A stretch of 53,543 bases of DNA, filler included, from Sluysia triapertura (GCA_046118255.1; 4 parts of 4 records of this genome joined end to end with filler, not necessarily neighbours in it), one strand, 5' to 3'. Positions 3,600-45,079 are shown, counted from the whole stretch's first letter. Notes: a model not told the origin generated them from the letters alone. Translations and numbers: made by a program.

Positions 3600-3905
3600 A
3601 ATCAGTATTGCCTAGTGGGAATAGATATTGTTGGAATAAGAATGATGCAGATGAAAACCTTATTAATTTATAAGAATCTCTTTGACATTTTAAAATAATT
3701 TGAGAAATAAAATCATTGTTATTAATATTGGAAATAAATTTGAAAAATTGATAATTAACATAAGGAAGTAGAAAAGGGAATCAGATTGGTGAAGGTGAAA
3801 GCATCTAGAGCCCCTGAAATCTTTAAACATAAAGAGAGACTAAGATTAACTAATTAAAATCTTAATTAAATCTTAATTTTGTTTTTGTGAATAATGTTTG
3901 AATGA
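3600..3905 (+). repeat. Dispersed repeat family R1, copy 1
   Basis: gaaggtgaaagcat and ataaatttg..ataattaacataaggaagtaga match the reverse complement of 14530-14650 and 40500-40610. gattaactaattaaaatcttaatt..gtttttgtgaataatgtttgaat matches 14178-14245. Confidence 0.75.
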
Positions 3906-3989
3906 GGATTGTTCTGTCAGAGTTGTAATTGTGTGTGTGTGTGTGTTTTAAAAAAACTCGCATTAGAAAAACTTCATATTGTTTTAATG

Positions 3990-4990
3990 AATGTAGATAA
4001 AAATAGAAATTTAGTTAATCATTTAATGTAACTGAAAAGCGTTATAAAAATGGACCGAAATGCTCGGTTTATTATTATTTATCATAAGCTGAAACTAATA
4101 AATTTAATGTACTTTTCTAAAGTGATGTAACTGAAGACTTTTACCAAGAACAAATTTCTGTGAACTGTGTGCAAAAATTGTCCATATATGACAAATAATA
4201 AATATATTTGAGGGAGAAAATCTAGAAGTATTAATTCCTTATTATAAACGCTCAGTTCGTTCGAAAAGCTTTTTCAATACCTTTTCAAATATGTGTAACC
4301 TTAAAATTAACAAGTTTCTACGATGGAAATGGAATTTCGTTTAATGAATTTTACAACTTGATGTTAGATTGTCTTTGTTGATAAATGTCATGTTCTTGAA
4401 GTTTTCTGAATTTTGGTTATATTTACAATGTTCTAGAAATTTGTATTCAATCAAATATGAATGTAGCTTATATGATATTTTCTAAGATAGATGGTTTCAT
4501 TCCTTTTGTAAAAGCAATTAAAACTGGATTTTACGTTAAAGGTTTGAATTTCTTTCAACTTTTATTAATAAATTTATCATAATTTATTATAATGAAGTTT
4601 TCACAAAGAATTTAAACATGAATATTCGATAATCTGAAAAAAATGTGTGAGTTTAGTGAATTAAATTGTAATTTAAAATGATTAAGATTGGATATTTTGT
4701 TATATATTTTATGAGTTGTGATTGTGTGATGTAAAAGCAATAAATCGTGCTACTAGTTCTTTTCGAGGTAGTGTTTTAAATTGATAATGAGTTGTTTAAC
4801 AAATGCAGTTTAAGATAAATGTATTTGTAATTAGTAAACATGATATTGATTATTTAAAATGTATGAAAAGAAGAGATAGATGTAAACTGAAGAGTTGCAG
4901 TATCAATGCAGGGATGTTTAGTTTTATATAATAGTTTTTGTGAGAAGTGGATTTGAAAAATTTTCACTTTCGTGAAAAATGAAATTGTGT
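3990..4990 (+). pseudogene. Decayed member of the G/T-skewed 'VVxCxC' orphan ORF family (solitary arm)
   Basis: Open stretch SFLNFGYIYNVLEICIQSNMNVAYMIFSKIDGFIPFVKAIKTGFYVKGLNFFQLLLINLS. YFMSCDCVM at ~4705-4735 aligns to YVVSCNCDL of 17384-17578. It is preceded by aaaaactcgcatta, resembling the module motif aaaaacgcataa. Confidence 0.5.
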
Positions 4991-5666
4991 CTTATGTAAT
5001 GAACCACACAAAATAGTAATATCGAATACTCCTTTGATATTATTTCTAGAATGAAATGTCAACTTAATTTAGTTTATAAAAGATCTAAAATTTTCCTATG
5101 ATACTATTTTTGTACAATGCAAATTTGATTATGCTTGTTTATAATTATTTTTTAGATTTTTTATTTAAGTAGGAGTTAACAGAGATGTTTCAACGAATTA
5201 TTATTTATTTATTATTATTAATCGAAAAAATATTAATAAAATACTATTTTTGACTAGACATATACAGTATCAATGCGATTGTTAATAATAATTTTGCTCT
5301 ATTTTAAATTTACAATGTAAATATACACAACGCGTTGCATTAAGTAGATCAATTTAAAATTTTAATAAGAAATTAGTAACTTATACTGACAACACACGTT
5401 TGTATTAATAAATAAAATTATTTAAATTGCACATATACTAAATTTAAATTATAGTAAATTATTATAAATTTAAAATAACTAAAAATATACCTTAAATATC
5501 TTAATAATTGTAAAAGATTAAGTATTGTAGTAATTATTGTAATAATATGTCAATATTAATAATAATAATTTAATCAAAATGTAAATGAAATTAAATAAAA
5601 ATGGAATATATTAAACATAAATTAGTAAGTTATGAATCAGAAACATTACTGGCATAATAAAATATA

Positions 5667-6305
5667 TGTTCGGTTGCCATCACAACCCTGCAAAATAATT
5701 TCAAATGTCATAATGACACCTTAAAATTATTTAAAACTATTTAAAATTATCAAAAAATTAAATAAAATCATAAAAAATGTTTCAAGACCATTTATTAATC
5801 TTTAAAATTACTTTAAAAAGAAAATAAAAATTCTAAAAAAGAAAGTTGGCTTCTAAAAATAGTATAGAAGCTTCTAGAATGTTGTAGAATATTCTAGAAC
5901 ATTCCATCGATTTTCAATGGATGATGCCTATCATATATATAAACTAGCCATTTGTAATAACATTAATTTTCAAAAACAAATTCATTTGCACAGCGCCACT
6001 TTGGTAAAATCGTTGGTAAACAAGTATTGGAAAATTATTCGTCAATTTCGATTAGGAAAATCTATTGGAAATTTTTGTAAACAGTTCACATTTAACATCC
6101 ATGCATAAAGTAATTTGTTTTTCTTAAGATTTGATATTAACTTTTTGGTATTAATATTATTGATATATACTTTATATTTGTATGTTTATTTACAAAAAGT
6201 CCTATTTTTAATAAAATCGTAATTAAGACTTGCTTTATTATGTTCTTTACATTGTTATTAAATATTATCTTTACATTTAAAATTTCCTTCTTAGTTGTAT
6301 TAACA
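5667..6305 (+). mobile_element. LTR-like dispersed repeat family R2, copy 1 (possible solo LTR)
   Basis: Begins TGTT(cggttgccatcacaacc) and ends (gtatt)AACA; contains TTCTAGAA-type arrays and a TATA-like tatataaa. Homologous to 11100-11377 (-) and 16680-16840 (+). No clean TSD. Confidence 0.55.
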
Positions 6306-6364
6306 ATAAAAGATACTCCAAAAAAATTATTTATTATTACAATGAAGAATTAAAACTTTTATAT

Positions 6365-7548
6365 CTAGATGCCTACTTCTGCATGACCCCTCAGACCTAT
6401 TATTGTTTCACTACCTGAAAAAAATTTAATAAAATCATCATCATTATAAAAAATTGAATTAAATTTTACCTTATTAGAATATACATTATGATTGTTACTT
6501 ATAAATTTAGGAGTTGCCAAATTGATGCTTTTAACTAATTTCATGATTTGTCCATTGTTCATGCCGTGTAAATATTTACATTTATTTCCATATTTTGAGC
6601 AAACTTCTAAATCAGTTGAAGAAAATGGGCAGAAGCAATGTCACTAATTTCAGGATTCATTTTTATCTTATCATTCTTGTAAAAAGGATTGACATTATAA
6701 TCTTTTTCATACATATGTAATTATGTTCATTGCTAATGACATTGAACCGTTGGATCATCATTAAGTTTTAACTTCTTTGTTCATATTACCTTGATCACAG
6801 TTAATGTTTTTCTGATGATCAAGAATCCAACTAATGTAAATTTTATAACATTTATAAAAATTATCACATTTAATTTCTTTATAAACTTTTAAAATCATAT
6901 CATTACATGGTGATTTCACAACAAAGTTTTATTTAGAACATGTTTCGGAAATGTACTAATACTGTTTGAGTACTTATTGCCTTCAACATTACAGTGCACT
7001 TTATTGTAACAGTTAAATTAACGGTTAACACAGTTACTATTTCTCAAGATTAGACATCCATAGTTATCTGAGTTACTTTGTCTTTCATTGACGATGATTG
7101 TGATCATCCTTTTATTACACTCATGAGTAGATGATTTCATAATACGTGATAAATAATTGATATTGAAAACAGGTACATCTACAACATATATTAATACAAT
7201 GATGTCATTATATTTTACACTATTTTGTGACATCAATTCAAATACGCAACTACTACATTTACTTCTGTCGAGATTACCCGAAATTTTTTGTTCGGTGTGA
7301 GATGAAATTTTATTACTAAAATAATCTTTATCAACCATTAATGATATTTCTTTAAACATTATCATTAATATTTTGTCTGTTACTAATTTTCGTCTTACAT
7401 ATCTTGATAATTCAGCATATCTATAAACCGTTAATGACGATAATATACAAGTTGTAATTTGACATATATTACTATTTTCATAAACATTCAAACCAAAAAC
7501 ATCATCGTCAGCTAAACTCGTAACACCAATTTCGATAATTTTAATCAT
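6365..7548 (-). pseudogene. Unit 1 main-arm orphan gene, intronless, interrupted; C-terminal CCCH-like motif
   Basis: The 176-aa ORF 7548-7018 continues in frame past TAA (FNCYNKVHCNVEGNKYSNSISTFPKH), then via frameshift (NFVVKSPCNDMILKVYKEIKCDNFYKCYKIYISW). 6640-6365 reads HCFCPFSSTDLEVCSKYGNKCKYLHGMNNG... Confidence 0.65.
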
Positions 7549-7764
7549 AAAGTATAATAATTGATTTACCGTGAATTTGTTTAACTATTTTTTTAACAAA
7601 GTGATATAAAATTTTTATTTTTATTACGAAGTATAATTAAGAATTAATTTTTATCGCCTTTTTAATTCTTTTTTAATTGAGCCAAATTTATTAAACTTTT
7701 ATTTGTTATTGACCATTAAACATTTATTTTTATTAATGACTAATCTTGCATACCTTTAAACTTG

Positions 7765-8180
7765 ATTGGTTGTCCAGCCAAATCACTTAATAAGAATCAG
7801 TATAATGAGTGACTTGTTTGGACAACCAATTCGCTTAGTTGGTTAATTTTTAATTGAATAAATCACAACAACTTGATGATGATGTCAACTGTGATGAGTA
7901 CCATCATCGTCAGTGACAAAATTACAATTGCAAAGTAAAGTGTCACTGTTGATTATGGCGGTAACACAGACGATTGTATTAGCTCAATTTGAATCAATTT
8001 TTATTAAGCAATGATAATGATTAAATGATAATAATAATAATAACAATAATGCTATTATTATTATTATTTTGAAATTTGAAATTTAAAAACGCATAAATTC
8101 TTGTTCTATCTTTATCTTACACGAACTTTCTTTAAATTTGCTGCTTTTCTAAACATATTAAATCTGATGAAATGAAAATT
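7765..8180. promoter_or_regulatory. Conserved hairpin module, copy 1 (hairpin B 7765-7830, hairpin A 7901-7958)
   Basis: Arms ATTGGTTGTCCA/TGGACAACCAAT and CCATCATCGTCAGTGACA/TGTCACTGTTGATTATGG. These are followed by the GGCGGTAAC motif, an (AAT)n spacer and the block cgcataa...ctttctt...ttctaaacatat...aaatgaaa shared with copies 2 and 3. Function not known. Confidence 0.8.
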
Positions 8181-9050
8181 TATTCAAAAATTGTTTCGAA
8201 AATATTATTAAGAAAAGAACATATTTGTTATTAGGTTCAAAGTATAGTTATAAAGCCCATGTCATTAAGTCAGTACTTACGTATGTGAATGTTAGAATGT
8301 TTTGTGTAGCTGATAGAACCTAACCAATATTCCTGAATTAATAATATCTCTGCTGAAAGTGTAAAAGTTCCAAGGTGTAAAATGCTGCGCAATGCGTTTT
8401 AATGTACTTTTCTTTTATTTCTGCAATTAAGGTGAATTAATTTTAGTTGTTAGATGAATTAATGTTTATAGAGCTTTTTAGGTGTTTATTGCTGTTTTTA
8501 AGTGAAAGTGAAAGAGGACGTTGTGGGAATATTAAATGTTTGAGATAGTTGATTTTGATTTTATGTAATTGTTTCTGATATTCTGGCTGAATAATATTAT
8601 TGTCTAAAGTGTTATTAATGTATGGATAGTTTTGAAATGAAAGCCTAGAATAAGATAGACGTTAGAATGAGTAATGGTGGTGTTTGGTTGTGAATGTTGA
8701 TGTTATTAGGTTTTTTGGGATGGAAAAATGTAAAATAAATATTTTGAATTATATTTTAATGTGTTTTGATGGTTTGGAGTATTATTGTAATTTGGATGTT
8801 GTGAGGTGTTGTGTAAGTGTTCTTGATGGATTTCTAGCTATGAGTTGATGGTATTTTATTATGAATTGTAGATTTGCAGTGTATTAAGAAATAAATTTTT
8901 GCTTTGTGAATTTATGAGGTTTTAATTATATATATATATTTCGGAATTTTCTCCGAATAAAATGATTTTAGTAAGGATTTTAACTCAGGCGAATGATTGA
9001 GTGAATTATTAAAGATAGTTTGAGTGTATTTTAACGCAAAATATTAATGC
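8173..9050 (+). pseudogene. Unit 1 partner arm: decayed 'VVxCxC' family ORF
   Basis: DVIRFFGMEKCKINILNYIL and VLMVWSYYCNLDVVRCCVSVLDG (8763-8830) align to RRCEVGTF...LLMLWNSIKCTCGLYVVSC. Strong G/T skew; many stops. Boundaries approximate. Confidence 0.55.
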
Positions 9051-11099
9051 GATAAACTTAGACAGAACTAGTTTACTTATTTAGTATGGATTCTTGAATA
9101 GAAATTGTAAAATCCCAAATGATAAAAATGTCCTAAGTACAGTTTCTCCAACAAGATTCTTCAGTAATAACAAGATTTTTCTAACTATCTCCACGAGAAA
9201 AGGAATGTTCTAAGTAACAATAATGTCTCCAACGAATTAGGTTCAAAATAATACTTTCACGACAAATTTGAGCACAATACATATAAACAACTTTCGTGTT
9301 TATTGTGTGTGTTTTAAACTAATTCTGTCTTTTATATATTTAATTAGAACTTTGATTTTTGCCGACAAAATAAAAATTTTCAAAAGTGTTAATTACGAAA
9401 AAAATATTATTTGATAATAATTATTTTATATTTTTGATAAAAGATAAAACTTTTAAAAGATAAAATTAATTTATTAATTAACTTTTTCTAATATTGCATT
9501 AAGATTTAATTAAAATTTTTTTAAATTTCAATTATTAAAAATTATAATAAAAAATTCCTAAAATATTTAAATGTTTTGAAAAATATTTACTTAAAATTTA
9601 CAAATATTCATTTTGCTGTGGTTTTTATATCTTAACCTTACTCAAGCAGCAAAATTCAATAAAAAGATTCGCCTATAATACACGACTTACGAATCGCGTG
9701 GCTGTAGATACGTAAAATAATAAAGTGAAAGTCTTCAAATAAAATTTGTGAAATAAGTGGATTGTTACTTAGTGACTGCAATAATATTATTTTATCAAGT
9801 TTCTTTATTATCGGTATGTTTGAAATCTTTAGAAATCTAATGTGCTTTATTATAAACTTATCTAATGTTAAACGTTGTCTTTATTAGAAAATTATTTACT
9901 TAAATAATCAATACTCTAGACTTTTACTTTAAATATTAACTTATCTAAATATTCAATTATCCAAAATTAAATAATGAACACTTCAATATTTATTATCTAC
10001 AATATTTATGACGACAATATTAACGTAAAACTAAATATTTAATTAACAACAAAATATCTAGAAATCCAATTAATTTAATAATATAATCAAAATAAAGTAT
10101 ACAATAATAATATACAATAATAAAGTTTGTCTTTTAAAAAGACCTAGTCTATTAGAGGCTCGGCCAGAAATTTTAATTAGTATTAAAATGCTTTTATCAT
10201 TGGCCTTAAGGGCCAACAGAAATAAGATATTTTGCGTAAGATTTTATGATTCTATTCGAGTTCAATCTATAAAAATTAGACTTTTTTTATAATTTTTAAG
10301 CATAATTTGTTGGCCAAAATCAATAAAATTCCGCTGCTGTATCTCGACATTAGCTTGTTGAAACTGTCGTTGAGTGTTAAGAAAAAAGTTCACAATTGAA
10401 TCCTCAGAGAAACATAAATTGAATAAGCATTTTAATCACAAAATCTTATAGGTATCTCGTTGACGTTCACTTCTTAAGTTAGTTTTTAAATAAAACAGTT
10501 TGCAATTATAACATTATTTGACGGATGTACATTTCTGAGTATGAATGCAAATGGGGTTATTTGGCGAAATATCACTAATTTTCTTTAATTCACCAAGATT
10601 TAATGTGTTGGGTTGTCATCAGTCCCTCTCAGATCATGAAATTTCTTAACGCAAATAATTTAAAATCGTTAATTTCCATAAAAGAAAATTATTTTCTAAA
10701 AATGAAGTCGAAATTTCTAGAACATTCTAGAATTTTAGATAAATTTCATTAATTTTGATTGCCTGATTACATTTAAAATATTAAAATATTACAAATTACA
10801 TTAGATTTACTACACTTATTTTTTAATATTTACAACTAAAATTCTATTGAATCTTTAATTATATTGATTAATTTTAAATATAGAAAATTCCCCTCACTAT
10901 AAAGGGGCAAAAAAGTAATTTAACAAAAGATTTTAATTTTAAGATGTTATAATTTTTATCTCCTCTGGGAAGATAAAAATTCCTTATAAAAAATAATTTC
11001 CCGCATTCATGGAAGGAAATCGATGTAGAGAATATCCAAATATCCAATATTGACTGTCGACAATATCCAAATACCAAAATGGACTGGTTAAAATCGTAA

Positions 11100-11377
11100 C
11101 AAAGTAAATAGCAAAAAACAAAGATTGCAAAAATGTTGTGATTAAAAATAACGTGTGTTGAAAATTAAACTGATGCTAGTTTATGTGCTAGTCATCAGCC
11201 AATAGAAATTGATGGAATGTTCTTGAAGCTTCTATTCTATTTTTAAAAGCTTATTTTCTTTTTTGGAAAATAATTGTTTTTAGTTATTTAGAATCTTTAA
11301 AATATTTCTTAAATGATTTTAAAATTTTTAGTGATATAAAAATTTTAGTGATATTTGGTTGCGATGGCAGCCAAACA
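11100..11377 (-). repeat. Repeat family R2, copy 2
   Basis: Reverse complement tgtttggctgccatcgcaacc...aaaaatagaatagaagcttc..acattccatc..ataaactagc matches 5667-5950. Confidence 0.7.
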
Positions 11378-11513
11378 AATTTAAATTTGCAAGCATAAGA
11401 ACCTGTAACTAGTATAGGAAAAAATCAAGACTAAATTGATATATACTAAATCGAAAGTTTCACAATAAAAACGATTAAATTAGTTACATGAACGTCATAA
11501 GTCTTTAGTGATG

Positions 11514-13024
11514 TTAACGAAATGTTAACTGAGAACAATCTAACTGATTCATTTCATGAATTATAGATTTTAATTTGGAGCAAGATAATATGATTAAGTC
11601 TTGAGACGCTAGACCTATATGAAGACAATTTCTTTTAATGATAAGTTCTTTAACTTGGGAATAAAAATAATTATAATCTCTATTCATATCATTTGATCTC
11701 ATTTTTTTATGACTGTTAAATTTAATATCTTTATGCAAGTTTAAAATCAAAGATTCAATAAAGTTTATGAAATAAACAAATAAAACTGTAAAAATTTCTT
11801 TATTTTTAAACGAAACAATTAATTTAAAATTTATTGCAGAATCCTTGTGTAACGCAATTGGCCTTGCTTTTAATTTGTCGTCTAAATAAAAATTAAAATT
11901 AAAATTGTATAATGAGTTTACAAAAGAAAAATTTACACTGTTATTACACCACGAAATTTCCGAATTCCACACTTTTGTATTTGGATCTTGGGACGTCAAG
12001 CAGCATGAGCAACTGACTACATGGCGAGAAGATTTGTAGTATCGAACATGGGTAATTCTAACATAAATTCAGTGACAATATTATAAAATTCATGAATCGT
12101 TATGTTACTCACGTGTCTACTAATACTCATAAAAACATCTTTAAAATTATCAATAATATCTTTAACACTTTGAGCAAATTTATCATCTTTAAACTTTTCA
12201 AAAACAGTATTCCTATTATGATCTAAAAGTATTGACAAACTCGATGCTCTTAGAATACTCATGAGACATAGATTACATGAGGTAATTATAAGATCAGTAA
12301 TCATAATGTTACGAAAATTAATGTGATGACTAGTCATATGATATATGAAAAAGCTATAAACATTTATTACATATTTAGTTGTTAACATATAAAAAAATAA
12401 ATAATTAATGAATACGAACAGATATGTAGCATTTAGTAAAATATCATCTTTAACTGTATATTTCATGTTTTCTTTACTAAGAACGATCATTAAAATGTTG
12501 AATGCCACGGTGATATTGCCTTTGTCACGACTGTGGTCTTTTAGAAAATAGATTAAGAAAATAATGAATTCATACGCCATATTAACTTGATTTATTATAA
12601 TATTACTCTTCTCCTTTTTGAATATAGTCTTTATAATTAAACGATTGTCGAAAATTATAATGTATCTCGTTACCGAGTTGCATGTTAATAACTGAACTTG
12701 TTCCTTGATTAAAAACAAACGATCATGGTATGTGCGAATTGGATCCGATGATATAAAACTATAAACTTGTAACAATCTCTTCATCCATTCCAATTTTGGA
12801 AATATGCAACCTGAATTGAGTACATGCATAATTTTTGAACCAGATAATTTGTTGTTGTTCTCAGTTAATACTAAAGAATACTTCGTAGGGATATCAACTG
12901 TTCGACACATAAGATTATATCTCTCTCGCAAAAACTTTATAAATTCATTCTTTGATTGACTTGAAAATATAATGATTTTTATTTCTAGATTTAGTGAGAA
13001 ATAGAACTGTGAATTTTCATCCAT
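11514..13024 (-). pseudogene. Unit 2 main-arm orphan gene (~500 aa if one frameshift near 12020-12028 is repaired); F-box-like N-terminus
   Basis: The 335-aa ORF and the 161-aa ORF overlap in different frames; the second frame reads ...HVVSCSCCLTSQDP. The joined sequence FYNIVTEFMLELPMFDTTNL(L)HVVSCSCCL aligns with FYISSILLMLWNSIKCTCGLYVVSCNCDL (17384-17578). The N-terminus FSLNLEIKIIIFS resembles the F-box core LPxEIxxxIF. Could be an intact gene if the frameshift is an assembly error. Confidence 0.65.
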
Positions 13025-13193
13025 CTCTTGTCAACTGTAAATTTTTCAAAAATTTCTGGTTTAACCAATTTAATAACATAAAAATTTTTTTGAAATTTAT
13101 AACAATCTTCGTTCTGTTGGTTCGACAAAAAATTGCAAAATGAAAAACTTATATTTGAGTTTTTATCAAATTCTTTTTTTAATTAGATTAATG

Positions 13194-13657
13194 ATTGGTT
13201 ATCCAACCAAATCGTGTATATGATGTCTAGACATACACGTTTTTGGTTGGATAATCAATATAGTAGTTAACTGTTGATGATTAAGCCAACAATGATGGCC
13301 GTCATCGTCATCGCTGATATATAATTTTAAATGTTAAACGAAATTTCACCGATGATGATGGCGGTAACAAAGCTGGTTTGACGTACAATTTGTGCTGCTT
13401 AAATAATTAGTATTATTATTATTATTTTGATTATTATTATTGTTACTGTTATTATTTTTATTATTATTATGATTACAATAATTATTATTATTATATACGC
13501 ATGCATTTCTTTATATTCACAATAAAACAAGATCTTTCTTTCTCTTCTTGAAACTTCTAGACATATTTTGACTTGAAATGAAATAGAAAATAATAGAATT
13601 GGATGTAATAACAGCAGTAATAAGATGAACAATGTTATGGTTATTGCTGTTATTACA
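13194..13657. promoter_or_regulatory. Conserved hairpin module, copy 2 (B 13194-13259, A 13299-13364, C 13604-13657)
   Basis: B: ATTGGTTATCCAACCAAA-TCGTGTAT / ATACACG-TTTTTGGTTGGATAATCAAT. A: CCGTCATCGTCATCGCTGA/TCACCGATGATGATGGCGG, then TAAC. C: TGTAATAACAGCAGTAAT/GTTATTGCTGTTATTACA. Confidence 0.85.
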
Positions 13658-14110
13658 CTGCATAAACATTTGGATTCCTTAAAAACTGTACACGAACTTG
13701 CTTTTTGAATATTTTAAATTTCTAACATATTTTAACTAAAAACCTTTAAGTGGAGGTTGATTTGAGTATATGTTAAAGAGATGAATTGTAGTCTACTCTT
13801 GCTATATTCGAAAGTTAATCGCACCTTGTTCTCTTCTTGTTTCTGAGTGGTATTGTCTTTGTGCTGTTAGTGATTATGTGATAATAAATGATGAATATGA
13901 AAGGTTGCAGTTGATTCGAAGATGTCGAGTGGGTAATTTTAAGTGGTTAAGGTTTGATTATTATAAATATAGAGTAACATGTTTTTAATGGATCTGTTGA
14001 TGTAATGTGATTGTATTAGGTGTGAATGAGATTTGGATATTATGACTTATTTTTGGTGGATGAAGTGTTTTGTGAGTGTATTGGAGATAGATATGTGAAT
14101 GTTGAGGTGC
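13600..14110 (+). pseudogene. Unit 2 partner arm: decayed 'VVxCxC' family ORF
   Basis: NSSNKMNNVMVIAVITLHKHLDSLKTVHELA and INDEYERLQLIRRCRVGNFK (13884-13943) align to KSNDNRVYGARVIVAASLYKMNSYKTVFNFA and MNNVFEMLYLNRRCEVGTFY of the unit 3 partner. Confidence 0.65.
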
Positions 14111-14159
14111 TGAAAAATTAAATTAATTTTTTTATAAAATTTAATAGTTATAAAGTTTG

Positions 14160-14901
14160 TCCACCACACTAAAAATAGATTAATTAATTAAAATCTTAAT
14201 TACTTTAATTAAGAAAAAGTACGTTTTTGTGAATAATGTTTGAATACAAAGTTGAAAGTATACACATTTGTTTTCAAAAGACCTTTAGATAAAGATATAA
14301 TATGATCGGGTTCATACAAAACAGTCTAGGTCGTTTAAGACATGAAAGAAATTGATTGATAAAATTGGATGAAGAAGATGTGTAAAATTTAAAATGTGAA
14401 GTTATTTTTGGCGAATTTTTTATTTTCAATTTGTAAGAATAGTTTATATTTGTTGTGTCACCCTTAGTTTATTATATTATCTGTATTAATTAATTAATCT
14501 ATAGATTTTATGATGGTTGAAAAGTATTTTATATGCTTTCACCTTCAACCCTTTGATTTTTTCATCTACTTATTTATGCTAGTTATTATTGTATCAAATT
14601 TATCTTTATTATCATTAACAATGATTCCATTGCTCAAATGTTATAAAGATTTATTAAATTACTCAAAGTTCTAAAGTACTTATCAAAGTTTTAAGAATAC
14701 TTAAATAATCTCAAGCTTCCACAAGTTCTCACACCTCATAAATATATTTGGAACTCAAAAATATTCGTTAGCTCTCAACATTACCTTAGATACTTTCATC
14801 TTCCTAATTCTTACTCCATCATTATTTTATTGTTTTACTCATTGTTTTGTATCAATTCTTTCTCCATTTTCCAATTCCACATCTTCTTCATCCAATTCAT
14901 T
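14160..14901. repeat. Repeat family R1, copy 2 (rearranged, two orientations)
   Basis: 14530-14900 is colinear with 40500-40920 (atgctttca, tatctttattat, ctcaaatgtt.taaagattt, ttggaactc, ccaattcca). 14178-14245 matches 3844-3903. Confidence 0.75.
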
Positions 14902-15001
14902 NNNNNNNNNNNNNNNNNNNNNNNNNNNNNNNNNNNNNNNNNNNNTTAATTAATTAANNNNNNNNNNNNNNNNNNNNNNNNNNNNNNNNNNNNNNNNNNN
15001 N
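14902..15001. other. Artificial contig-join linker N44-TTAATTAATTAA-N44
   Basis: Identical 100-nt construct at three places; the 12-mer gives stop codons in all six frames. Confidence 0.95.
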
Positions 15002-15008
15002 CATAGTA

Positions 15009-15059
15009 AAATCCAACGGCTGGCCCTAACCGGTAAGTCCAGTACGTTGGTGGACTCAC
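15009..15059 (+). repeat. Dispersed GC-richer repeat R3, copy 1
   Basis: 48/51 identical to 47573-47623; internal stem CCAACG..CTGG/CCAG..CGTTGG. Confidence 0.85.
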
Positions 15060-15427
15060 AATAAGTTTTTCATTTCTTGTATTCTCATTCCCACAACTCT
15101 GAAATTTTAATTGAAATTTTTCATCTAGCAATTTTAAGTTGCTAAAATCATATCAAAATATTTGAATTTTTTTTAAAGCGAAACCTTTTTAAATAAGAAA
15201 GAATTTAATCTTTCTGAACCTTGTAAGTCATATAAAATATCATCTTAGTTATTTATTAGTTAAATTATATTAATACCCTAAATTATCAGCAACATTTTGC
15301 AAATCACATTTTAAATAGTGATTTAAATTTCAGCGAATACATGTTATTTCATGTTGACCTCTACTTCGTTAAGAAAATTTAAAATTATTGCGCAATACTT
15401 GTCAATGGATGTAAATATTTTCCTTCA

Positions 15428-15648
15428 TTTATATGTATTTATTTTTATTTATTTGAATATTTTATATGTATTTTATTTTTATTTATTTGAATATTCTACA
15501 TGTATTTTATTTTTATTTATTTGAATATTTTATATGTATTCTATTTTTATTTATTTGAATATTTTATATGTATTTTATTTTTATTTATTTGAATATTTTA
15601 TATGTATTCTATTTTTATTTATTTGAATATTTTACATGTATTTTATTC
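15428..15648. repeat. 34-bp tandem repeat, ~6.5 copies
   Basis: Unit tatgtattttatttttatttatttgaatatttta; gaata recurs at 15455, 15489, 15523, 15557, 15591 and 15625. Confidence 0.95.
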
Positions 15649-16679
15649 ATAATTTTGCATAAATTTATGCATTTTTATTCAAATTTGTAAAACTAACGAT
15701 TAATAATAATATTTGATATAATTTTAATAAATTCGATAATAATAAAGAATTTAATATAAATATTTTAATTTCGACAAAATAAGAATAATAATAAAATAAA
15801 ATAGTTCATTAAAGTACTAAACTACAGGGTTACGACCTTTTAAGGTCATTTGATTATTGAAAAGTATAAGGTGAGAATTATTGATTTGTAGATATTATAA
15901 AATTTTTGTTGCATATTTAAAAATATTTGAAACGATTGTTATAAAACCAATTTATGAAACTTTTGGAGAAAGTTGGTAAATTACAGCAAATCTAATTTTG
16001 ATCAAACCATCAATTACAGTTCTTATATCAAATTCTGGATTCTTTATTAGATAGTTTTTTCGATTAGTCGTTAGTTTTAAAGTTGTTAAGGCTGACACAT
16101 TTTAAATGTGTCGAGTAAAATCGTACTTAATTTTATAAAATTTATAAGATTAGATTATTGTTTCATAATAATAATCAGATAATATTATTTTATTTGAGTT
16201 GTTAATATTAAAGAATTTAATATTCGTATTTCACAATACAAAATATCATCTTTTAACATTCAAACATTTTTAATTATAAATTGTAACATTGAAATTATTT
16301 GTAATTAATTGAATTTACAAGATTTTAATTCAGATAGTTTTAAAGTTTTTTTAAAATCCCATAAATTGTTGAATAAACCTAACTTTTAAAGGCAGAAAAT
16401 TATATTTTCAACAGATCCGTATTTGTGGTAAATACTTTTTTAACCTCGATGATAGCGGACTTTAATACATATCGAAATTTCAAATTACTAAGAATCTTCT
16501 TTAACAATATTAATCTCGCTGAAAAACGGAAAGTTAATCTCACTTTTATAAATATAAACAATTTTAAAATACGTTGGAACAATTTTCATACCTGTTTTAA
16601 AATCGGATTGTAAAATATATTATTTATGTAGATCCTGTTTAAATATTTTAGGTTGATAACACAAACTTCTAAAATTTAA

Positions 16680-16840
16680 AATACCATCACAATCTTTAAA
16701 ATTATTTAAAAATCTTATTTTCCAAAGAAGAAAAGTCGTTTCTAAAAATAGAATATACAATTCTAGAATATTCTATTGGTTGATTAATAGTTCATTAATA
16801 GTTACCATCTTATTCGCCACTTTAGAATTTGTCAGCCATT
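16680..16840 (+). repeat. Repeat family R2, copy 3 (internally deleted)
   Basis: ccatcacaa..ttaaaattatttaaaa..tctaaaaatag..ttctagaatattcta..cgccacttt shared with 5667-6005. Confidence 0.65.
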
Positions 16841-17109
16841 TTACTGTCAGTCATTTTTGTTATCAGCGATCTGTCAACTTTGCTTAGCAGCAGGTAACTC
16901 ATCAGAGTTTAAAATCAATAATTTTGTCAATTCCGAGCGATTAAATCAAGATTATTCGTAACAATATTTGCAATTTTCCGTAAGCTATTTTTATTAAGGA
17001 AATATTACCTTTCTTGAAAATTAATATATTAAAATCCACTCAAAATCTCTACGTTGTAAGTCGTTTACTATTACCAGACCATGCTTAAAACATTTCGTTG
17101 TAGGTTAAG

Positions 17110-17990
17110 TGTTAAGAAAACCACAATAAAGAGGATCGATGGGTGGCAAATACTCATAATCACTAAAAATTTATTAAAATTTCACAACATCTAAATCACA
17201 ATCATATTTAACACTACGAAACCACATTAATTAACTCATAAGAAACAAGACTCGGCAGTTACAATAATCCAACAACAAACACATCTCAAACAATCCATCT
17301 AATACTTTCGAACCTTCATTTCACACTACTCTGTAACAATCAATACCAAATATTTAATAATATTTACTCAATAGTTTATTGGCTTAAATCAAATCACAAT
17401 TACAACTTACAACATATAAACCACAAGTACATTTAATACTATTCCACAACATTAATAATATACTCGAAATATAGAAAGTACCTACTTCACACCTTCGATT
17501 CAAGTACAACATTTCAAACACATTATTCATATATGCACACAGAACAACAACACTAAAAACACCAAACAAAATAATCATACGAAGAGTTATATTGTAATTG
17601 CCCTTTTAAATTCAATAAATTACAACCTTCTCAATAAGCCCTTTATCCACAATATTTCAATGCATAAATCTTGTTTTCAAATATAGATTTCAATCAATGT
17701 ACAAGAACTTATTCTAACATTCTCTAATTTACTCCAAGATTCATATCAATTATTATACCTTCAAAGGTTAAATATATTTATCAATTCTTTTAAGACAATT
17801 CTTACTCAGAAATTTAGTCTCTAATACATTTCAATTCATTTCAACATGTTAAAAATCAGTAAATAGTTAAGCAAAATTGAATACAGTTTTATAAGAATTC
17901 ATTTTATACAATGAAGCAGCAACGATAACTCGAGCACCGTATACCCTGTTATCGTTGCTCTTTCATACAAAATCAGCAATCTTTATTTCA
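17110..17990 (-). pseudogene. Unit 3 partner arm: decayed 'VVxCxC' family ORF
   Basis: Includes ORF 17384-17578 (…MNNVFEMLYLNRRCEVGTFYISSILLMLWNSIKCTCGLYVVSCNCDLI) and upstream KSNDNRVYGARVIVAASLYKMNSYKTVFNFA. C/A-rich on +, i.e. G/T-rich on its sense strand. Confidence 0.65.
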
Positions 17991-18340
17991 TTTTATTTTT
18001 ATATGTTTAGAATAAGTATAAAAAGAAAGAAAAGATCTTCTAGAATACATTTAAAAAGACTTTTATGCGGTTTTTCCTTTTATTGTTAACAATAATAACG
18101 GCAATATTGTTGTTGTTATTATTGTTATCAATTTTAAAGTAATATAAATTTAATCTTTATAATTTTTACAAAATTAGTTCAACGAGTTGCTGCCATCATC
18201 AGTATTGATACTGCTTGTCAAAATTTTCATTATCGTGTCAATATTGATGATGGTTAATCATCAGCGATTACATTTGTGCATGTCACCCAATCAGAGCTGA
18301 TATTGATTAATGTTCGTTCTCGGGGTTCTGATTGGATGAC
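17918..18340. promoter_or_regulatory. Conserved hairpin module, copy 3, inverted (C 17918-17959, A 18193-18253, B 18282-18340)
   Basis: C: AGCAACGATAAC/GTTATCGTTGCT. A: CCATCATCAGTATTGATAC/GTGTCAATATTGATGATGG, preceded by GTTGCTG. B: GTCACCCAATCAGAGC/GTTCTGATTGGATGAC. Shared block tttcattt..atatgtttagaa..aagaaag..agatctt..ttatgcg. Confidence 0.85.
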
Positions 18341-18490
18341 CAGTCAGCTATTATTCTTACTAGCTAATTTTAAATTTTTTGGCAAAAGTTCGTAGATGAT
18401 AAAAATTTTTAATTAAAAGAGGAGATATACTTTATACTACTGGGCAAAAAAAATTTGAATTACGTTTTAGAATCTTCAATTACATAAATA

Positions 18491-19563
18491 ATGATTAACT
18501 GTGCTAATGTAGCTATATTCTACAAATATTCAAAAGCATTGGGAGCAGAATCCGGCTATCGTAAAGCTCAAATGAAACGGAAATTGTTATCAAGAATTAT
18601 GGATCATAGATATCTTATAGTAAATGCAAAGAGTCATCCACAAGAGTTTAGAAGGATTAAAATTGTAACGATTCAAGAAGATAATGAACAAGAAGAAATC
18701 TTGTCACAATGTTTAAATTACATTAAACAAATATATGAACTAATAAACAATACTGATCATTCTTACATCCCAAATTATCATACATTTATAATAAAAGAAG
18801 ATCTGATGACTCTTCAAACGATGCTCGCTAATAATCTATGTGATTCAATAATAGATGATACTCCGAACGAAGTTATAAAACATTATCATGACATTATTGT
18901 TAGATTTCCACGTAGTGAACGTATTATGGGTCACGTGACTCAAACAGCGGTAGACGAACTTGTTAAATATGTATATAAAGTTAGATCAGTAAAATTAGAG
19001 TCAGATAAACCGGTTAAAGATGTATATAAACTTAAATCAACAAAATTCGAAGTAGACAAACCTATTGGAGATATGTATCTAATTAACCGATTGACAAACT
19101 TGTCACAGATATATATAAAGTTGAACGAATCTGTATAGAATTCGATAAATCGACTACTACGGTGGTAAAGTGCATTTTGTACACGACCCAAGATGATATA
19201 GACATTATATTAAGCAGAATAATGAGAGCAAATAATAAAGTTATCCAACAACAGTATCGATTCAGCCAAAATGGAAATATGAGTTTAGTCGCAGTTAATA
19301 ATGAAAATCTAGAAGAGAACATTATCAGTAAAATATTATCAGTAAAATTCTGTTTTGTTTACGTTGATCATTATCTAAACTATTTAAATTTTTTAGGATT
19401 ATGTTCCAGTTATTGGCTCAAGGTCATTACCAAGGATGTGGTGCGAAAGATATTGCGAAATGACAAAACGAATAATATGATCCCAAAATGTATTAACAAA
19501 TTTTTTAAAAGAATTCCTAATGTGTTAATAATTATTAGTTATAGTGTGCTTAATACTTGTTAA
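18491..19563 (+). pseudogene. Unit 3 main-arm orphan gene, frameshifted within a 51-bp repeat; may extend to 19886
   Basis: The 215-aa ORF is joined to the 133-aa ORF by a frameshift near 19085; the second frame continues the repeat (IDKLVTDIYKVERICIEFDKSTTTVVKCILYTTQD). Confidence 0.65.
18953..19150 (+). repeat. Coding 51-bp (17-aa) tandem repeat, 4 units, third shortened to 38 bp
   Basis: Units start at 18953, 19004, 19055, 19093 and (partial) 19144: DELVKYVYKVRSVKLES / DKPVKDVYKLKSTKFEV / DKPIGDMYLIN.. / DKLVTDIYKVERICIEF / DKS. Confidence 0.85.
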
Positions 19564-22500
19564 TTAATAAATGTGTTTGCATTAATAAAAATCTTTTATA
19601 TTTTAAAGTAAAAGTGAACATAATGTATTACGTCGCCCTCAGTAGATTTTTGCCAGGATGTGTAGTTCACAGGTTAATAATCCAAATCAAAGTATCATCG
19701 TGTAGATACTTTAAATCTAAGGGAATTATAGACCTAAATAATGAACTAATATTAGAGATTTTAGGGTCCTTAATTTTAAAAGGTAATAATAATTATTCAT
19801 CACCACCAAAAACTGCACATACCTTAAATTTGTGTCAAGAGTTCACTCTTAAAACTCTAAATATTACTCTCTATCTAGAAGTGTAATATTGAATACTCAT
19901 CTCACTTGTTTAAGATGGAAATGCTTAATTGAGATTTCAATTCACTTGTTTCTAGTATTTTCTAACGACTATTTTCTGATATTTGGTACTTATTTCCATT
20001 TTATTGATTTTAATTCCAACCCCTTTGTTCTATATTATATGCAAATAAAATACAGAAAAATAGTGAATACTTATTAAATAAATTTTAAATTACGCAAAAC
20101 ATTAATTTTAGTTTAATCAACATGTAACAAAAGAAAATAAAGTTTAGTAAATATTACTTACTTGAATAATAACAAAGTTTCTCCGAATGTTCTTGAATTT
20201 TCAATAGTCTCTGGTGATGTTAGTGTTGTTGATTTAATTGATCAAATGTTCTAAATCTTCAAATGTTTCAAGAGACTCTCGTATTGCTGATTTTATTATT
20301 GTTGTGTGTTATAAAAAAAATTTTACTATATTTATATCCGATTAGCAGTAATTATAATGACGTATTATTAGTATTGTTATTTAAAATTATTAAAAAATAT
20401 TTATTTAAATTATTATTTATAATAATTATTAAAATTATTAGTAATAAAATAGTTGTATATTAATAGTAGTTGTATAACATTAGTAACTATTTTCAGTCAG
20501 TAATATAAACAGTAATAATCATAATAGTAGTAATTATTTACAGTCAATTATTAACAGTATTTATACAATAATTGCAATTAACAAGACAAATTTACAATAT
20601 TACCAAAATTACATTTCACTAAATGAAATTTAAATGAATATTAAAAATTACATTAAAATTTTGACATTAAGATTTAGATGATATTGATTAAAATTTTAGA
20701 TGAATATGATGAGTAAAATTTAAATGATAAAATATTCATTATTTTAAATTATTTTATAATTTAACGATTATTTTAACATTATTTTATAGTAAAAATGAGT
20801 ATTATTTTTAAGATGGGACATTATTTTATAAAATGAATATTTATAATATTACATTAATATCATTTCCATTTTAATAAATCACGGCTTCTTCGTTTTCCAA
20901 CGTTATTGATTCATCCGTACTCTTTTGGACTTCTCAATTTAGATGTAACAAGTTTAGATCTACATTTCTTGTGCTTCATTGTTTTCTATCAGTTATTTTG
21001 TTTTTAGGATATTTTTGGATATTTATTTCGAGGTTATTGAGGTAGATTTAGATTTATTCTTATTTTAAGATTATTAAGATCTTTTTTATTTAAAATTACT
21101 AACATTAACTTATGTATTTACAATATTAATATATAAATGTGAACATCGAAAAATATGGAAAATAAAATGATTTAGAATTTTTCTATTAACTAAAGCTCTG
21201 GTAATCCCATGATATACTTTTCATATTTTTAGAAATTAATTTAATATTTTAAAATTAAACCACAAAATAGCGCATAAAATAGCATATAAATAAACAGCTT
21301 ATAACAAATTATTATTATAAATTATTACATTTAAAAGAATTCAAAAATAAAAAAGCTAATTTTACTACATAAATTAGAGTGATAAATATTTTTATACAAA
21401 AATGTAATATTTAATATTTAAATAGTAAATAATGATAACTTCATAAATGCATACATACGTACAAATATTTATTATTGATTGTATCCAGAAGGATAGTCGA
21501 TTATTAGAATATTATAAATTCTTATTAATATCAAAAATGATTCAGATAGTATTGAAACATCACATTTGAATAATTGATGTAATTATCTTTTTAGATTAAC
21601 AGTAATATTAAATTTTAATGAATAAAACGAATTGAAAATATCATTCAGATATTAAATAAATGAAGTTTAATTACTTAGCTATTTGAAACATGTTTTTGAA
21701 TTATCAATATTATGTATATTATATTATTATTTAATTTCAATTTTGATTACAATATCTAATTATCAGTTTTATATTATAATATAAGTTGTTATAGTAAATA
21801 GTAATAAACAATGTAATAAATAATGTTGATTTTACTTTTCTATAATAATAATATTGAAGTCTAAATTTAAATATCGTTCACAAACTATATTATTTAATAA
21901 CGCTTATGTTATATAAAGAACAATGTAATGTATTAATTTTATGAGCATTCAAAACCTTATTTGGTATGAACACTATGACTTGAAAAGACATTAGCATCAA
22001 ACATAATATGGCACTCTACTATATCATAATTTTCTCAACTGATTGCCTGTAAATTGTCACTATAATTCTTACAAAATATTTCTTACAAACAAATAAAATA
22101 ACTTATACAAATATTTATCTTTTGAAAACTATAATCATTAACAAAAACGGGATATTAAACTTTTTAAAACTATTTTAAAAATATAAATCTATTTTATGTA
22201 TTATTGATAAATTACGTGTATTTTAATTTTAGTAATTGGTTTTTAGTTATAATTATAATTGTCGCGTCTTTGAAATTATTAGTTTAATTTACTTAAATAG
22301 AATATCAATAATTTCAATACTCACTAGATCAAGTATAAATTATCACAAATTTTCATATTTATTCAACCAAAAAATTACGTTCTTCAATTGAAATTATTAG
22401 CAATAACTCAATAATATAATTATTACAAAATCAAACATAAATTTCTATTATAAGTCTTCACATTAACAATAATATGAGTGAATTAGCTAAAAATGATTAA

Positions 22501-40999: not shown

Positions 41000-42378
41000 T
41001 TTTCAAGAATTATTATTAAATAAGGTACTCAAATTGTTCCGTAAGATTTTGTTCTTAATTTTTCATTACAAATTTTAAAATATGTTTTATAGCTAGTTTT
41101 ACATTGAATCTAAAGTACAATAGTGTGTGGAGAGCAAGAAATAAACAAATTTGTAAAATCTATTATTATTTTTTATGAAAATTGTTTATAACTTTAATTG
41201 AACCAAAACGTCTCAACATTAATTTAACTATTTGTAACAAAATAGGCGTAAGGTCTGTAACAATTAACGAATTTAAAACGATAACGAAATTTGTCATTTT
41301 ATTAATTAGAAATAATAAATAAAAACGAAACAAGTAAAATGTAAATAATAATAATAAAACCATGTGTTTTTGTATATCCACTAGAATATCTGCCAGAATT
41401 TTCAATAATTTCAATAAACGATTATGTGGTACTATTTTACATATTGTTTGGAATCGCACCATAAATCTTGTAACCATATTTGTACATTCAATACGCAACA
41501 TGTTCATGCCATAATCTTGACTACTTGCCATAATTATGCACAACAAAATTGATAATTCAATTTGTAAAGATTTGAAAAAAACAGCCGATCTTTAGTAGTA
41601 TCTCTGAATAACTATAATTAGAATTTTTTAATACTCGTACTGGAACATCATTCATTTTACTATAAATATAATCATCACTTCCTGATGATTTCAATATAGA
41701 TTTAGTTAATTCACGTGTTGATGTGCATGATTAAAATGATTTAATATATCATTCATTTTATTAAATATATTATTAGATGAACTGCTTCGTTTAAGAGTTT
41801 TTTTGATAAATTTTTATTAAAATTTAAATCAGCAGCTCCAACACTTTCATAATGGTCAATTAGCATAGGATACGGTTTTGGATTTTTAAATGTCATTTTA
41901 ATAATACATTACCAAAGAATCATTTATTGATTTTTTTTAATCTTTTTTAATTAATTCGTATTAATTATTATTTTATTATTAATACTAATATAATAGGTAT
42001 ACTTATTTAATTTGTAGTAAATTGTGTTATCAAATTGTAAATAAATATAATTTCTATATGTTTTGAATCTTCGTATTTTTATCTATTTTAACGAAGTGAG
42101 TGAACAAAGTACTGATTAATTATTTAATATTTTGAATAGTTTTATGAATCGTTATATAAATAGATAGACGTAGTTTTTACAATACCATTTGTTGATTGGC
42201 TATTGACAAGAATAGATTTAATGTTTCCATTGATATTAGAAGTTACAGATAGAGGATATTTATTTTCAGAAGTATTCAAGCAATTCTTGTGATTTTCATT
42301 ATAATTTCTTTCAGGTACAAAGGTAGCACGGCGATATTTTGGTGATCTAACCATTTCTTTGAATTGTTGACGTTTCAT
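41000..42378 (-). pseudogene. Unit 4 main-arm orphan gene, heavily interrupted
   Basis: ORFs 42378-42142 and 41546-41166 plus intervening open stretches (LISTLFTHFVKIDKIRRFKTYRNYIYLQF; MTFKNPKPYPMLIDHYESVGAADL; TRELTKSILKSSGSDDYIYSKMNDVPVRVLKNS). 5' end abuts a gap. Confidence 0.55.
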
Positions 42379-42619: not shown

Positions 42620-43060
42620 TTATAAGAGTTAAAATGGGTTTTAGGTCGTTAAATTGATTTTTAGTGATTATTGCGAAATAATTTTTTACATGCTATAATG
42701 TTTTTGCAAATGGTTATGGATGATGAGTATGGTTGTGTGACGTGGAATTGGAATGTTATTGTTGATTGTTGTTTTAGGTGAGATGATCTTTGTTTCTGAA
42801 TGTTATTGTATTTGTGATTTGTGAAATTCGTGTTATGGTTCTGACTTGTTTGTTAAGGTATTTAATGAGTGAATGTTTTGAATTGTTTGAAATGGATGTG
42901 AGAATTTATTGAGTTGGGAATGTTAAGATATGGATTAATTTGTTGTTGGATGTAGTTTGGTGAAATGTTAAGATTGTATATTATTGTTTTATGAGGTGAA
43001 TTGAGTGATGTTTATATTTGAAAGATATTGTTGTGAGTGCTATTATTTTGAGGAGATTTA
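42620..43060 (+). pseudogene. Unit 4 partner arm: decayed 'VVxCxC' family ORF
   Basis: IRVMVLTCLLRYLMSECFELFEMDVRIY*VGNVKIWINLLLDVVW (42826-42960) aligns to MNNVFEMLYLNRRCEVGTF..LLMLW and RVGNFK. Strong G/T skew. Confidence 0.55.
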
Positions 43061-45079
43061 ATTTAATCTTAAATTTAACATAATTAAAGTTAAATTTATA
43101 TAGGTTGTAATGCCTTCACTTCCAATAAGAGAGCTGCTTGTCACATTAGTGGTAAACACTGCGCTTGAGGATTTGTCTTTAGCAACCGATGCAATGCAAC
43201 TATTATTGCCATTAGTGATCTACGTTTTTATTATTTGGGTATCGACATTTTTCATGTTGTATTATCCCTGTATTTTTCTTTTTTAATCTACTGCATACGG
43301 ACAGTTATTCATAACTTTGAATTTATATATCGTTATTAAAGAATAATTGATAATTTGTTATTTTTGTTACTTTTAAAATATATACCGAGAATACATGTTA
43401 ATTTAATTGTTGAATTATCATTGAATATTTTGAATAAAGACACAACATATAGAATTAGTCATAATTTTGGAGATATGTATAATGTAAATGATTCCTCATA
43501 TTTCAAATATTGATCGCACAGCGTACTCAGGTGATCTAAAATATAATAAAATTAAAAATACTACTTTATTGCATCATGGCATTTAGAAAATAAACATTTA
43601 TGTAATATAAATAAGAAGTTTAACAAATGAAAATTTCCACTACTCTGCGACAGAATGCATAAATTAAAAATAGTACAACTTTAGCAAAGAAAAAACTAAA
43701 ATTTGAAATAAATTTTTAATTGCTATTTTGAATTGAATTTTATAGACTAGTCACACTTAATTAAAACAGAAAATTTCGTAGTGAAATTCAACACACAAAT
43801 TTCAAACAATGAAAACTAATTTCATTAATATGAATTAAAATTATTAATTAAATTAATAATATTATTTACATAAATATATACTGTGATGATTTATTTTATA
43901 AAAATATTTGTTTTCAGGTTTTATTTGAAGTAAAATTATTTTTAATAAAAGTATTTAATATTTTTATACATTCTGAATATATTATTTATTAATTATATTA
44001 ATAATAATCTTTAAAAAATTTTTGTTTTTAATCTAACATAATCTACTTATATATACTACTATTGTCATGTAAACCTAAAACGTTCCAGTTATTATTGCTC
44101 ATCAGACATTTTATCGAATTTCATAATGAACTGATCTTATATTCTAATCTTGAGCAGTCAATTTCCTGAAGTCTGNNNNNNNNNNNNNNNNNNNNNNNNN
44201 NNNNNNNNNNNNNNNNNNNNNNNNNNNNNNNNNNNNNNNNNNNNNNNNNNNNNNNNNNNNNNNNNNNNNNNNNNNNNNNNNNNNNNNNNNNNNNNNNNNN
44301 NNNNNNNNNNNNNNNNNNNNNNNNNNNNNNNNNNNNNNNNNNNNNNNNNNNNNNNNNNNNNNNNNNNNNNNNNNNNNNNNNNNNNNNNNNNNNNNNNNNN
44401 NNNNNNNNNNNTATTTAGTGTTTCTTTAGAAATAAACACGAATTAATTAAATATGTTAACATGAATTATTGTTACATAAAATAATATAATTATCATAATA
44501 TAATTATAAACAATGAAGAATGTACTAAAAATAGAATTATATTAAATAATAATCAATAAATTGACGAAAAAGATAGAGTAAATATTGACATCAATGACAT
44601 TTATTATTAAAATCAGTATTATCATTATAACTGGAACTAAAAATATGCATAGGAATAAGAAACATAATACAAAAGAAATGAGAAAGAATACAGAAATAAA
44701 ATAATAAACACAACCTTACACCTTCAATTTTCTCTTCAATTTTTTTGCCTGTATACTCGAAATAATTTTGTTTAATCAAACTATTTTTCAAATATTATCA
44801 GTGCGATGGCTCAGCCTTAACTTACAATTTTAACATTCATTAAGTCAAACATCAGCTTAGATCAATCCTATAATATTTTTATTACATGCAATTTTCATTA
44901 TTCACATTTTTTACAATACTGACACGTCTTATAATTCTATCACTCACAAATTCGCTTAAACTACCAAATACAATCATTTTTAATTCTAGTATATCACAAA
45001 CATTACAACCTTTCAGTTATACATTTGGTGTTTTGTTTTACATACTTAATCGACGTAATTTGTTAAGATAAGAAGTTGA

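Follow-up and report, generated by a model that had tools for sequence, protein, structure and literature searches.

Repeated units in Sluysia triapertura DNA pair a conserved two-hairpin non-coding module with unrelated, decayed open reading frames

The stretch of Sluysia triapertura DNA analyzed here (GCA_046118255.1; 53,543 nucleotides, filler included, made of four parts of four records joined end to end and not necessarily neighbours in the genome; hereafter the window, at its full length) carries three repeated units, each of which is one gene with a conserved non-coding half rather than a pair of genes. Every unit has the same order: a decayed intronless open reading frame (ORF), 145-215 bp, hairpin B, hairpin A, an (AAT)n tract, a conserved block C, and a long G/T-rich arm. 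The units are alike in length (2.55, 2.6 and 2.4-2.9 kb), one is inverted, and unrelated repeats occupy the spaces between them. A first-pass annotation had described this order and orientation, with unit 3 inverted, and we recover both; its distances from ATG to hairpin B (217, 170 and 151 bp) lie within a few bases of ours (215, 168 and 145 bp, from our own anchor). It had also taken the units for head-to-head two-gene cassettes, which is not supported, since the partner side has no measurable coding signal. We favour, tentatively, the reading that each of the three units is a copy of a mobile cassette that is about 2.5 kb long, non-autonomous and specific to its lineage, with the hairpins acting in cis and the ORF as exchangeable cargo.

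The non-coding module, for which no strand is assigned, was delimited by fold and pairing analysis (hairpins) and by alignment and shuffle comparison (block C). In unit 1 it comprises hairpin B (7763..7832, about 70 nt, with a CCAAT-like word in its stem), hairpin A (7901..7958), a self-complementary (AAT)n/(ATT)n tract (8010..8070) and block C (8088..8178). The corresponding features of unit 2 lie at 13192..13259, 13298..13365, 13406..13494 (an (ATT)n tract, from a repeat scan) and 13498..13588, and the inverted unit 3 runs from block C (17985..18072) through a self-complementary (AAT/AAC)n tract (18085..18135) and hairpin A (18193..18253) to hairpin B (18280..18346). Compared pairwise against trinucleotide shuffles, the hairpin part, at 55-62% identity, gives z-scores of 10.5, 3.8 and 4.4, and block C gives 3.8, 6.2 and 3.0, with 0 of 60 shuffles reaching the score in each case; alignment and shuffles thus bear out the earlier claim that the module is homologous across the three units. 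A profile hidden Markov model and a covariance model, which the first-pass annotation had proposed, were built from the three copies and find exactly three full copies in the window and no fourth.

Compensatory changes preserve the pairing of both hairpins, which are 58-70 nt long and imperfect in their stems. In the three-copy alignment 93.9% of 98 cells are paired, which 0 of 500 shuffles matched, although that figure is not a probability, the pairing structure having been derived from the same three sequences; 8 of the 33 stem pairs have changed on both sides, as against 0-1 in slid controls. Arm-to-arm conversion in a DNA palindrome could yield the same compensatory pattern. Folding z-scores on the two strands are -5.1/-6.7, -6.4/-6.8 and -2.8/-1.9 for hairpin B of units 1, 2 and 3, respectively, and range from -2.0 to -5.5 for hairpin A, the weakest folds being hairpin B of unit 3 and hairpin A of unit 1 (z -1.9 to -2.8). 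Together with the shuffle comparisons and the depth in one run described below, this pairing upholds the earlier view of an amplified unit whose conserved part is structured and non-coding.

Hairpins of this size allow another explanation, which we consider possible though not foremost: the units would form a fast-evolving host gene family, with the module as a bidirectional promoter that sends mRNA one way and a G/T-strand non-coding transcript the other way, the microRNA-sized hairpins being cut to small RNAs and transcription having made the skew of the arms. The resemblance to clustered pre-microRNA hairpins at a bidirectional promoter, as generally known, lies in the size, the imperfect stems, the CCAAT-like words and the G-U pairs on one strand. 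All six one-sided stem changes give G-U on the G/T strand, although this bias also follows from mutational skew; within hairpin B, conservation on that strand is higher in the 5' arm than in the 3' arm, the spacing to the ATG is constant, and four of the window's five CCAATCA words fall in the modules (homologous copies, and so not independent). Rfam places the module in no family at the gathering score, with only weak generic hairpin matches beneath it (the best being mir-219, at 27 bits against 54.5), and the best-conserved letters of hairpin A sit at the stem base and beyond, off the seed position. Moreover, all three window ORFs are broken, and unalignable proteins beside non-coding DNA of 55-62% identity would be unusual for paralogues. 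Two ideas of the first-pass annotation, a bidirectional promoter (here with a non-coding partner transcript) and a virus- or transposable element-derived unit with a hairpin origin, may each still apply.

Elsewhere, the strict hairpin A pattern has no occurrence in IMG/VR or in the JGI metagenomes and the strict hairpin B pattern none in IMG/VR. No ribozyme family is present among the module's Rfam matches up to E 10, so the hammerhead expected of a Penelope-like element or retrozyme is lacking there. A looser hairpin pattern returned 2 plus 60 loci, which we ascribe to chance, as the covariance model recognizes none of the 62 at E 1 and no ORF is matched by any of them. By eye, the end of block C on the G/T strand reads ATG-AAA-stop in every copy (8165-8175, 13576-13586 and 17985-17995), the stop codon differing among the three, and on the opposite strand of the block an ATG opens a short basic peptide.

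The main ORFs, which we call M1 to M3, are real, broken and unrelated to each other. M1 (6365..7548, minus strand; intronless, Cys-rich, about 390 codons) has a premature stop at 7018-7020 followed by several frameshifts. M2 (11514..13024, minus strand) has 335 open codons, a frameshift near 12017-12068 and about 500 codons in total, and M3 (18491..19563, plus strand) has 215 open codons, a frameshift near 19087-19138 and then a further 158 codons. Reading through M1, M2 and M3 needs 7, 3 and 3 breaks, respectively, where shuffles need 21, 20 and 15 (0 of 200 each). Nothing else in the window has a coding signal as strong as the main ORFs: a coding scan of its whole length flagged 19 windows, of which 14 overlap these ORFs or the stretch after M3. 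That stretch (19564..20077, plus strand) needs 2 breaks against 7.6 in shuffles (1 of 300) and is probably a continuation of M3 or a second decayed ORF; no family matched it. The first-pass annotation was right that the main ORFs are barely alignable, with z-scores of 0.0, 1.2 and 2.1 at the DNA level and protein scores at or barely above the shuffle maxima, and it had given little weight to the breakage of all three. M3 also contains an internal tandem repeat of 51 bp (17 codons) at 18950-19062. A YVALSR string after M3 (frame 19554-19886) resembles motif VI of Pif1/Helitron helicases; no helicase family or structure was matched.

Homology searches covered the open ORF pieces only. Pfam searches with 6, 48 and 6 ORFs gave no significant match, the best being the M1 tail against zf-CCCH at E 0.018, below the cut-off, and neither PHROGs (10 ORFs), NCBIfam (9 ORFs) nor the PDB (5 ORFs) returned any. 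In a set of 5.8 billion proteins M2 and M3 have no homologue, nor has M2, the only one searched there, among 1.84 billion representatives. An exact look-up of six proteins, a phage set (M2), a plasmid set (M3) and IMG/VR (pieces of M1, M2 and M3) were likewise without a match. The ESM Atlas gave one BRCT cluster for M2 at 0.76, below the usable range, and none for M3. Single-sequence AlphaFold models were unusable (predicted local distance difference test scores of 34 and 37), so the outcome of Foldseek with these models, 0 matches at E 0.001, is uninformative.

On the other side of the module lie the arms, at 8180..8913 (plus strand; G 157, C 46), 13590..14120 (plus strand; G 117, C 42) and 17180..17990 (minus strand; G 168, C 54). 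The first-pass annotation had taken these 530-810 bp for alignable, paralogous partner ORFs. Three tests show no coding signal in them on either strand: shuffles are as open as the arms (best 28 of 200), the result does not improve when short introns are allowed (best 6 of 30, against 0 of 30 for a spliced host-like control), and eight homologous arm blocks show no pooled excess of synonymous changes or lack of stops (G/T strand, p 0.22/0.18; C/A strand, p 0.07/0.08). Nor do alternative genetic codes help, since every G/T-strand arm frame contains all three stop types and a single reassignment clears none. What stands of the earlier claim is the alignability, and that for one pair, arms 2 and 3 being homologous over their length (z 5.5) and arm 1 reaching only z 1.9 and 2.3 against them, with a block of 49 nt shared between arms 1 and 3 (0 of 200 shuffles). 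Arm 3 has an internal 50-nt repeat, 225 bp apart, and is alone in having a significant one.

Without a coding partner, the protein toxin-antidote pair suggested by the first-pass annotation loses its main basis. We regard as improbable a two-gene selfish cassette in which a variable toxin is joined to a conserved protein or small-RNA antidote and the partner has decayed beyond recognition. Duplicated toxin-antidote modules with unrelated toxins and paralogous antidotes do occur in Caenorhabditis tropicalis (klmt-1/kss-1 and pzl-1/kss-2, according to the available extract of PMC12680543), and as in those modules one side of our units diverges fast while the other stays recognizably paralogous; unlike in that extract, the conserved side here is non-coding, and there is no F-box or leucine-rich repeat match. 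Two of the eight arm blocks are stop-free in one G/T-strand frame (p 0.015 and 0.049), so the arms may have a very old coding origin; one block has seven synonymous codon changes (p 0.09), and short L-x-L-x-x-C-like runs can be seen by eye. The pooled tests nevertheless give no sign of two linked protein genes, and an antidote should be an intact gene, whereas in every one of these units the antidote side would have decayed further than the toxin side. For a small-RNA antidote directed at its own ORF, the 5' arm of unit 1 hairpin A (7902-7913) matches the start of M1 (7500-7511) over 12 nt exactly. This is significant alone (p 0.005) but not over the 96 comparisons made between hairpin arms and ORFs, in which the mean z, 0.14 for a unit's own ORF and 0.28 for the rest, gives no advantage to own ORFs, so that a single such match is expected by chance and the idea is overall unsupported.

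The arms are strongly skewed and the modules are not. G exceeds C with p 2e-15, 2e-9 and 8e-15, and T exceeds A too; of 100 gap-free 500-bp windows, seven reach arm-level skew, comprising four in arms, two tracts (at 4.5 and 42.5 kb) and an A/G-rich coding remnant (24 kb). The tract at 4400-5000 (G 102, C 39) is a further G/T-rich stretch that has neither a module nor an upstream ORF, and its homology to the arms is unsupported. A skew confined to the arms supports a single-stranded copying stage, and G+T excess is described, in the part of PMC10030826 available, as a signature of a strand exposed as single-stranded DNA. The same extract has G+T excess marking non-template strands through transcription, as the host-family explanation would have it. 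The longest ORF is paired with the shortest arm. A G:C ratio of 3:1 is far stronger than the usual transcription skew, which counts against a host gene family.

Depth data from one public run (X1), possibly the window's own source, were mapped at 80% likeness to 3000-14880, and so to units 1 and 2. The run has 57% of the sampled words of these units, and exact unique contigs reach depths of 9-16. At most of the variant sites shown in units 1 and 2 (40 of 926 variant rows), the window's own letter makes up about 1-6% of the summed depth, with other letters taking 1442 of 1473 at 7297, 331 of 342 at 13283 and 4692 of 4728 at 8704; sites dominated by another letter are present in M1, in module 2 and in the arms of both units. 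A listed variant site falls within the codon that forms the first premature stop of M1, and this break therefore looks private to the window copy. A 323-bp contig on M2 has 26 differences, and in each of the two arms the highest depth is at the far end (3383 and 1871, compared with 280-650 in the modules). Bins under unique contigs sum to 109-409, the same range as M2 (278-471). Overall the run suggests tens of related copies, ORFs included. A contig joint, 6441-10286, was set aside, both of its sides being AT-rich at a likeness of 80.

Turning to the mobile cassette, we infer every step of its mechanism. The hairpins would fold in single-stranded DNA or RNA and be recognized by a replication or transposition protein supplied in trans. 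During copying, the G/T strand of the arm would stay single-stranded for long, as in rolling-circle elements, and deamination would remove C and A from it. With its CCAAT-like words the module may also drive transcription of the cargo ORF. The cis half would be under constraint, whereas cargo ORFs would be exchanged or evolve quickly; the window copies would have decayed since insertion. Conservation of the non-coding half beside unalignable ORFs supports this reading, and so does the absence of introns from the main ORFs, given that a host-like gene in the window fits a short-intron model. Further support comes from the compensatory stem changes, the skew of the arms, the signs of tens of copies, the similar unit lengths, the inversion of one unit, the unrelated repeats between units and an order of parts that recalls DINE-1.

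A number of results weigh against the cassette. Transcription alone also yields G+T skew on the non-template strand, according to the available part of PMC10030826, and three copies within 13 kb would equally suit an old local gene cluster. Family searches found no Rep, helicase, transposase or reverse transcriptase among the window ORFs. Because the host-like gene is an orphan too, the orphan status of the main ORFs says little about novelty. The spacer at 9.6-10.3 kb has the same variant pattern as the units, so that being repeated does not set them apart; summed depth is not copy number, and the depth pattern comes from a single run and 40 of 926 variant rows. The unit ends bear no known signature either. 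Terminal inverted repeats, as in a transposon or miniature inverted-repeat transposable element (MITE), are missing (eight end-to-end comparisons, best 14 of 200 shuffles, with approximate ends); no long direct repeats flank the ORF as in a long terminal repeat element, module and arm occurring once per unit; the hairpin region has no 11-12-mer that reappears in inverted form within an arm or at an arm end, as a subterminal inverted repeat (subTIR) would; and no terminal stem-loop is shared, there being none at the arm ends of units 2 and 3 while that of unit 1 belongs to the neighbouring repeat. Set beside the account available in PMC4067079, these absences count against the known rolling-circle families.

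More generally, within no unit does one end match the other, directly or inverted, and nothing is common to the ORF ends, the spacers and most arm ends. The arm of unit 1 gives way near 8913 to a repeat that is present at 38283-38492 too. Our searches thus agree with the first-pass report of no terminal inverted repeat, target-site duplication or transposase at the unit. A canonical Helitron begins with TC, ends with CTRR and a short palindrome, and is inserted between A and T. With the unit ends still approximate, the ends of ORFs and arms share no end motif or stem-loop. By their sequence, the units seem to behave most like a cargo-carrying non-autonomous element or a virus segment, and show the defining ends of no family tested.

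The nearest known order is that of the Helentron-derived HINE and DINE-1 elements, which, as far as the available portion of PMC4067079 describes them, have a hairpin region, a conserved core, a microsatellite and internal repeats, encode no transposase of their own and are mobilized in trans. Such elements insert at TT and have an autonomous Rep/helicase partner with the same ends. The order in our units, from hairpin through microsatellite and core to the arm, recalls theirs, with an internal repeat that is significant in arm 3 only. They differ from that description in having no 11-15 bp subTIR pair or shared 3' stem-loop, in the length of their hairpins (58-70 nt), and in that each bears a whole intronless ORF facing away from the arm. 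From this likeness, and from the richness of the genome in small repeats, one might suppose that module and arm are an ordinary MITE- or DINE-like repeat lying by chance upstream of three unrelated host genes. We find this very improbable: each of the three modules is followed, 145-215 bp away and always in the same orientation, by a long ORF, although the window has few of these, and neither subTIR nor terminal inverted repeat is present.

The combination of a shared non-coding region with unrelated single ORFs is also that of segmented viruses, and the units could be segments that an unknown multipartite virus, or a replicon of several components, left integrated in the genome, each holding one gene, a common region with origin hairpins and iterated protein-binding words, and skewed filler that keeps the length near 2.5 kb. 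In the accessible part of PMC10880892, Nanoviridae and bipartite begomovirus components have a common non-coding region, a stem-loop, short repeated words, unrelated proteins and similar sizes, a layout that our units share in carrying a common region with unrelated ORFs, as circular Rep-encoding single-stranded (CRESS) DNA virus segments do. Fusarium asiaticum vivivirus 1, in the extract of PMC12282112, has monocistronic RNA segments with a shared C/A-rich region at the end upstream of the ORF, and each unit too has one ORF and a shared C/A-rich region upstream of it. The pairing of the longest ORF with the shortest arm would suit such segments, as would the intronless ORFs and the TGATGAT word, which (counting its complement) occurs seven times in the three modules out of 30 in the window.

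We nonetheless judge a virus origin unlikely. Compared with the components described in PMC10880892, the units have two large hairpins rather than one small one and no TATT/AC nonamer in the loops, no Rep was found, and the copies are chromosomal in one permutation. None of the window's 46 matches to the CRESS nonamer ANTATTAC falls within a module. Circles integrating at random would not all be opened at one point, as these three copies are. With respect to the vivivirus as described in PMC12282112, the units have a shared region of more than 1 kb that is rich in hairpins, their ORFs are not followed by poly(A), and no ORF resembling an RNA-dependent RNA polymerase (RdRp) was found. Among the window ORFs searched there is no match to a Rep (of the HUH type), RdRp or capsid, IMG/VR has no match for the strict hairpin patterns or for M1, M2 and M3, and the constancy of size is weaker if M3 extends to 20077.

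A broader proposal, which we hold to be rather doubtful, is that the units represent a new class of eukaryotic mobile or multi-component replicon, size-constrained, with a conserved two-hairpin cis module and skewed arm core behind which unrelated genes are slotted, in tens of copies per gene type. It would be comparable to multipartite virus segments or integron cassettes set in a nuclear genome. The literature we searched, which leaves most subscription papers and supplements outside its scope, holds no account of such a layout. If the units are mobile cassettes, they would give a eukaryote a route to amplify and exchange whole orphan genes under one structured cis element, and the end signatures used by repeat classifiers would all be missing from them. 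In that case the covariance model would allow the family, and its autonomous partner, to be sought directly in the assembly. Were the virus explanation true, the units would be the fossil record of a virus group absent from IMG/VR; in a host gene cluster, proteins would have diverged beyond recognition while the regulatory hairpins stay paired.

A fourth unit may be present further along the window. A decayed orphan ORF, M4 (41166..41730, minus strand; 1 of 300 shuffles), has no visible module, and an assembly gap (42394-42493) falls where the module would sit; beyond it a G/T-rich tract (42650..43080, plus strand; G 105, C 13) is directed away from M4. M4 and this tract may together be the fourth unit, although homology of the tract to the arms is unsupported (z -0.7 to 1.5).

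The setting is AT-rich eukaryotic DNA (17-29% GC per kb) with assembly gaps, numerous small repeats and few long ORFs. The host-like gene mentioned above lies at 27696-28355, with two exons and a short intron (about 48 nt by eye), and fits the short-intron model (0 of 30 shuffles). It may be FAM210/DUF1279-like, and it has no Pfam match and no homologue. A scan for tRNA genes found none, and a bacterial promoter scan was uninformative. The region 33700-34450 is a decayed coding remnant, the openness of which 6 of 200 shuffles reach, and which by eye looks like a piggyBac-type transposase; Pfam gave no match. A decayed A/G-rich ORF region occupies 23797-24985 (minus strand), and at its end lies a 75-bp inverted repeat (23644-23824; 91% complementary, 31-nt spacer). 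Other repeats include a 34-bp tandem unit in 6.5 copies with 94% matches (15428-15647) and a C/A-rich repeat in two mutually inverted copies, 93% identical (29313-29384 and 53259-53330). Two short repeat families, one at 3843-3903 and 14177-14245 and the other at 5797-5948, 10653-10767, 11175-11323 and 16691-16799, have very high summed depth in run X1, with bins of 42,000-200,000 for both, and are probably MITE-like.

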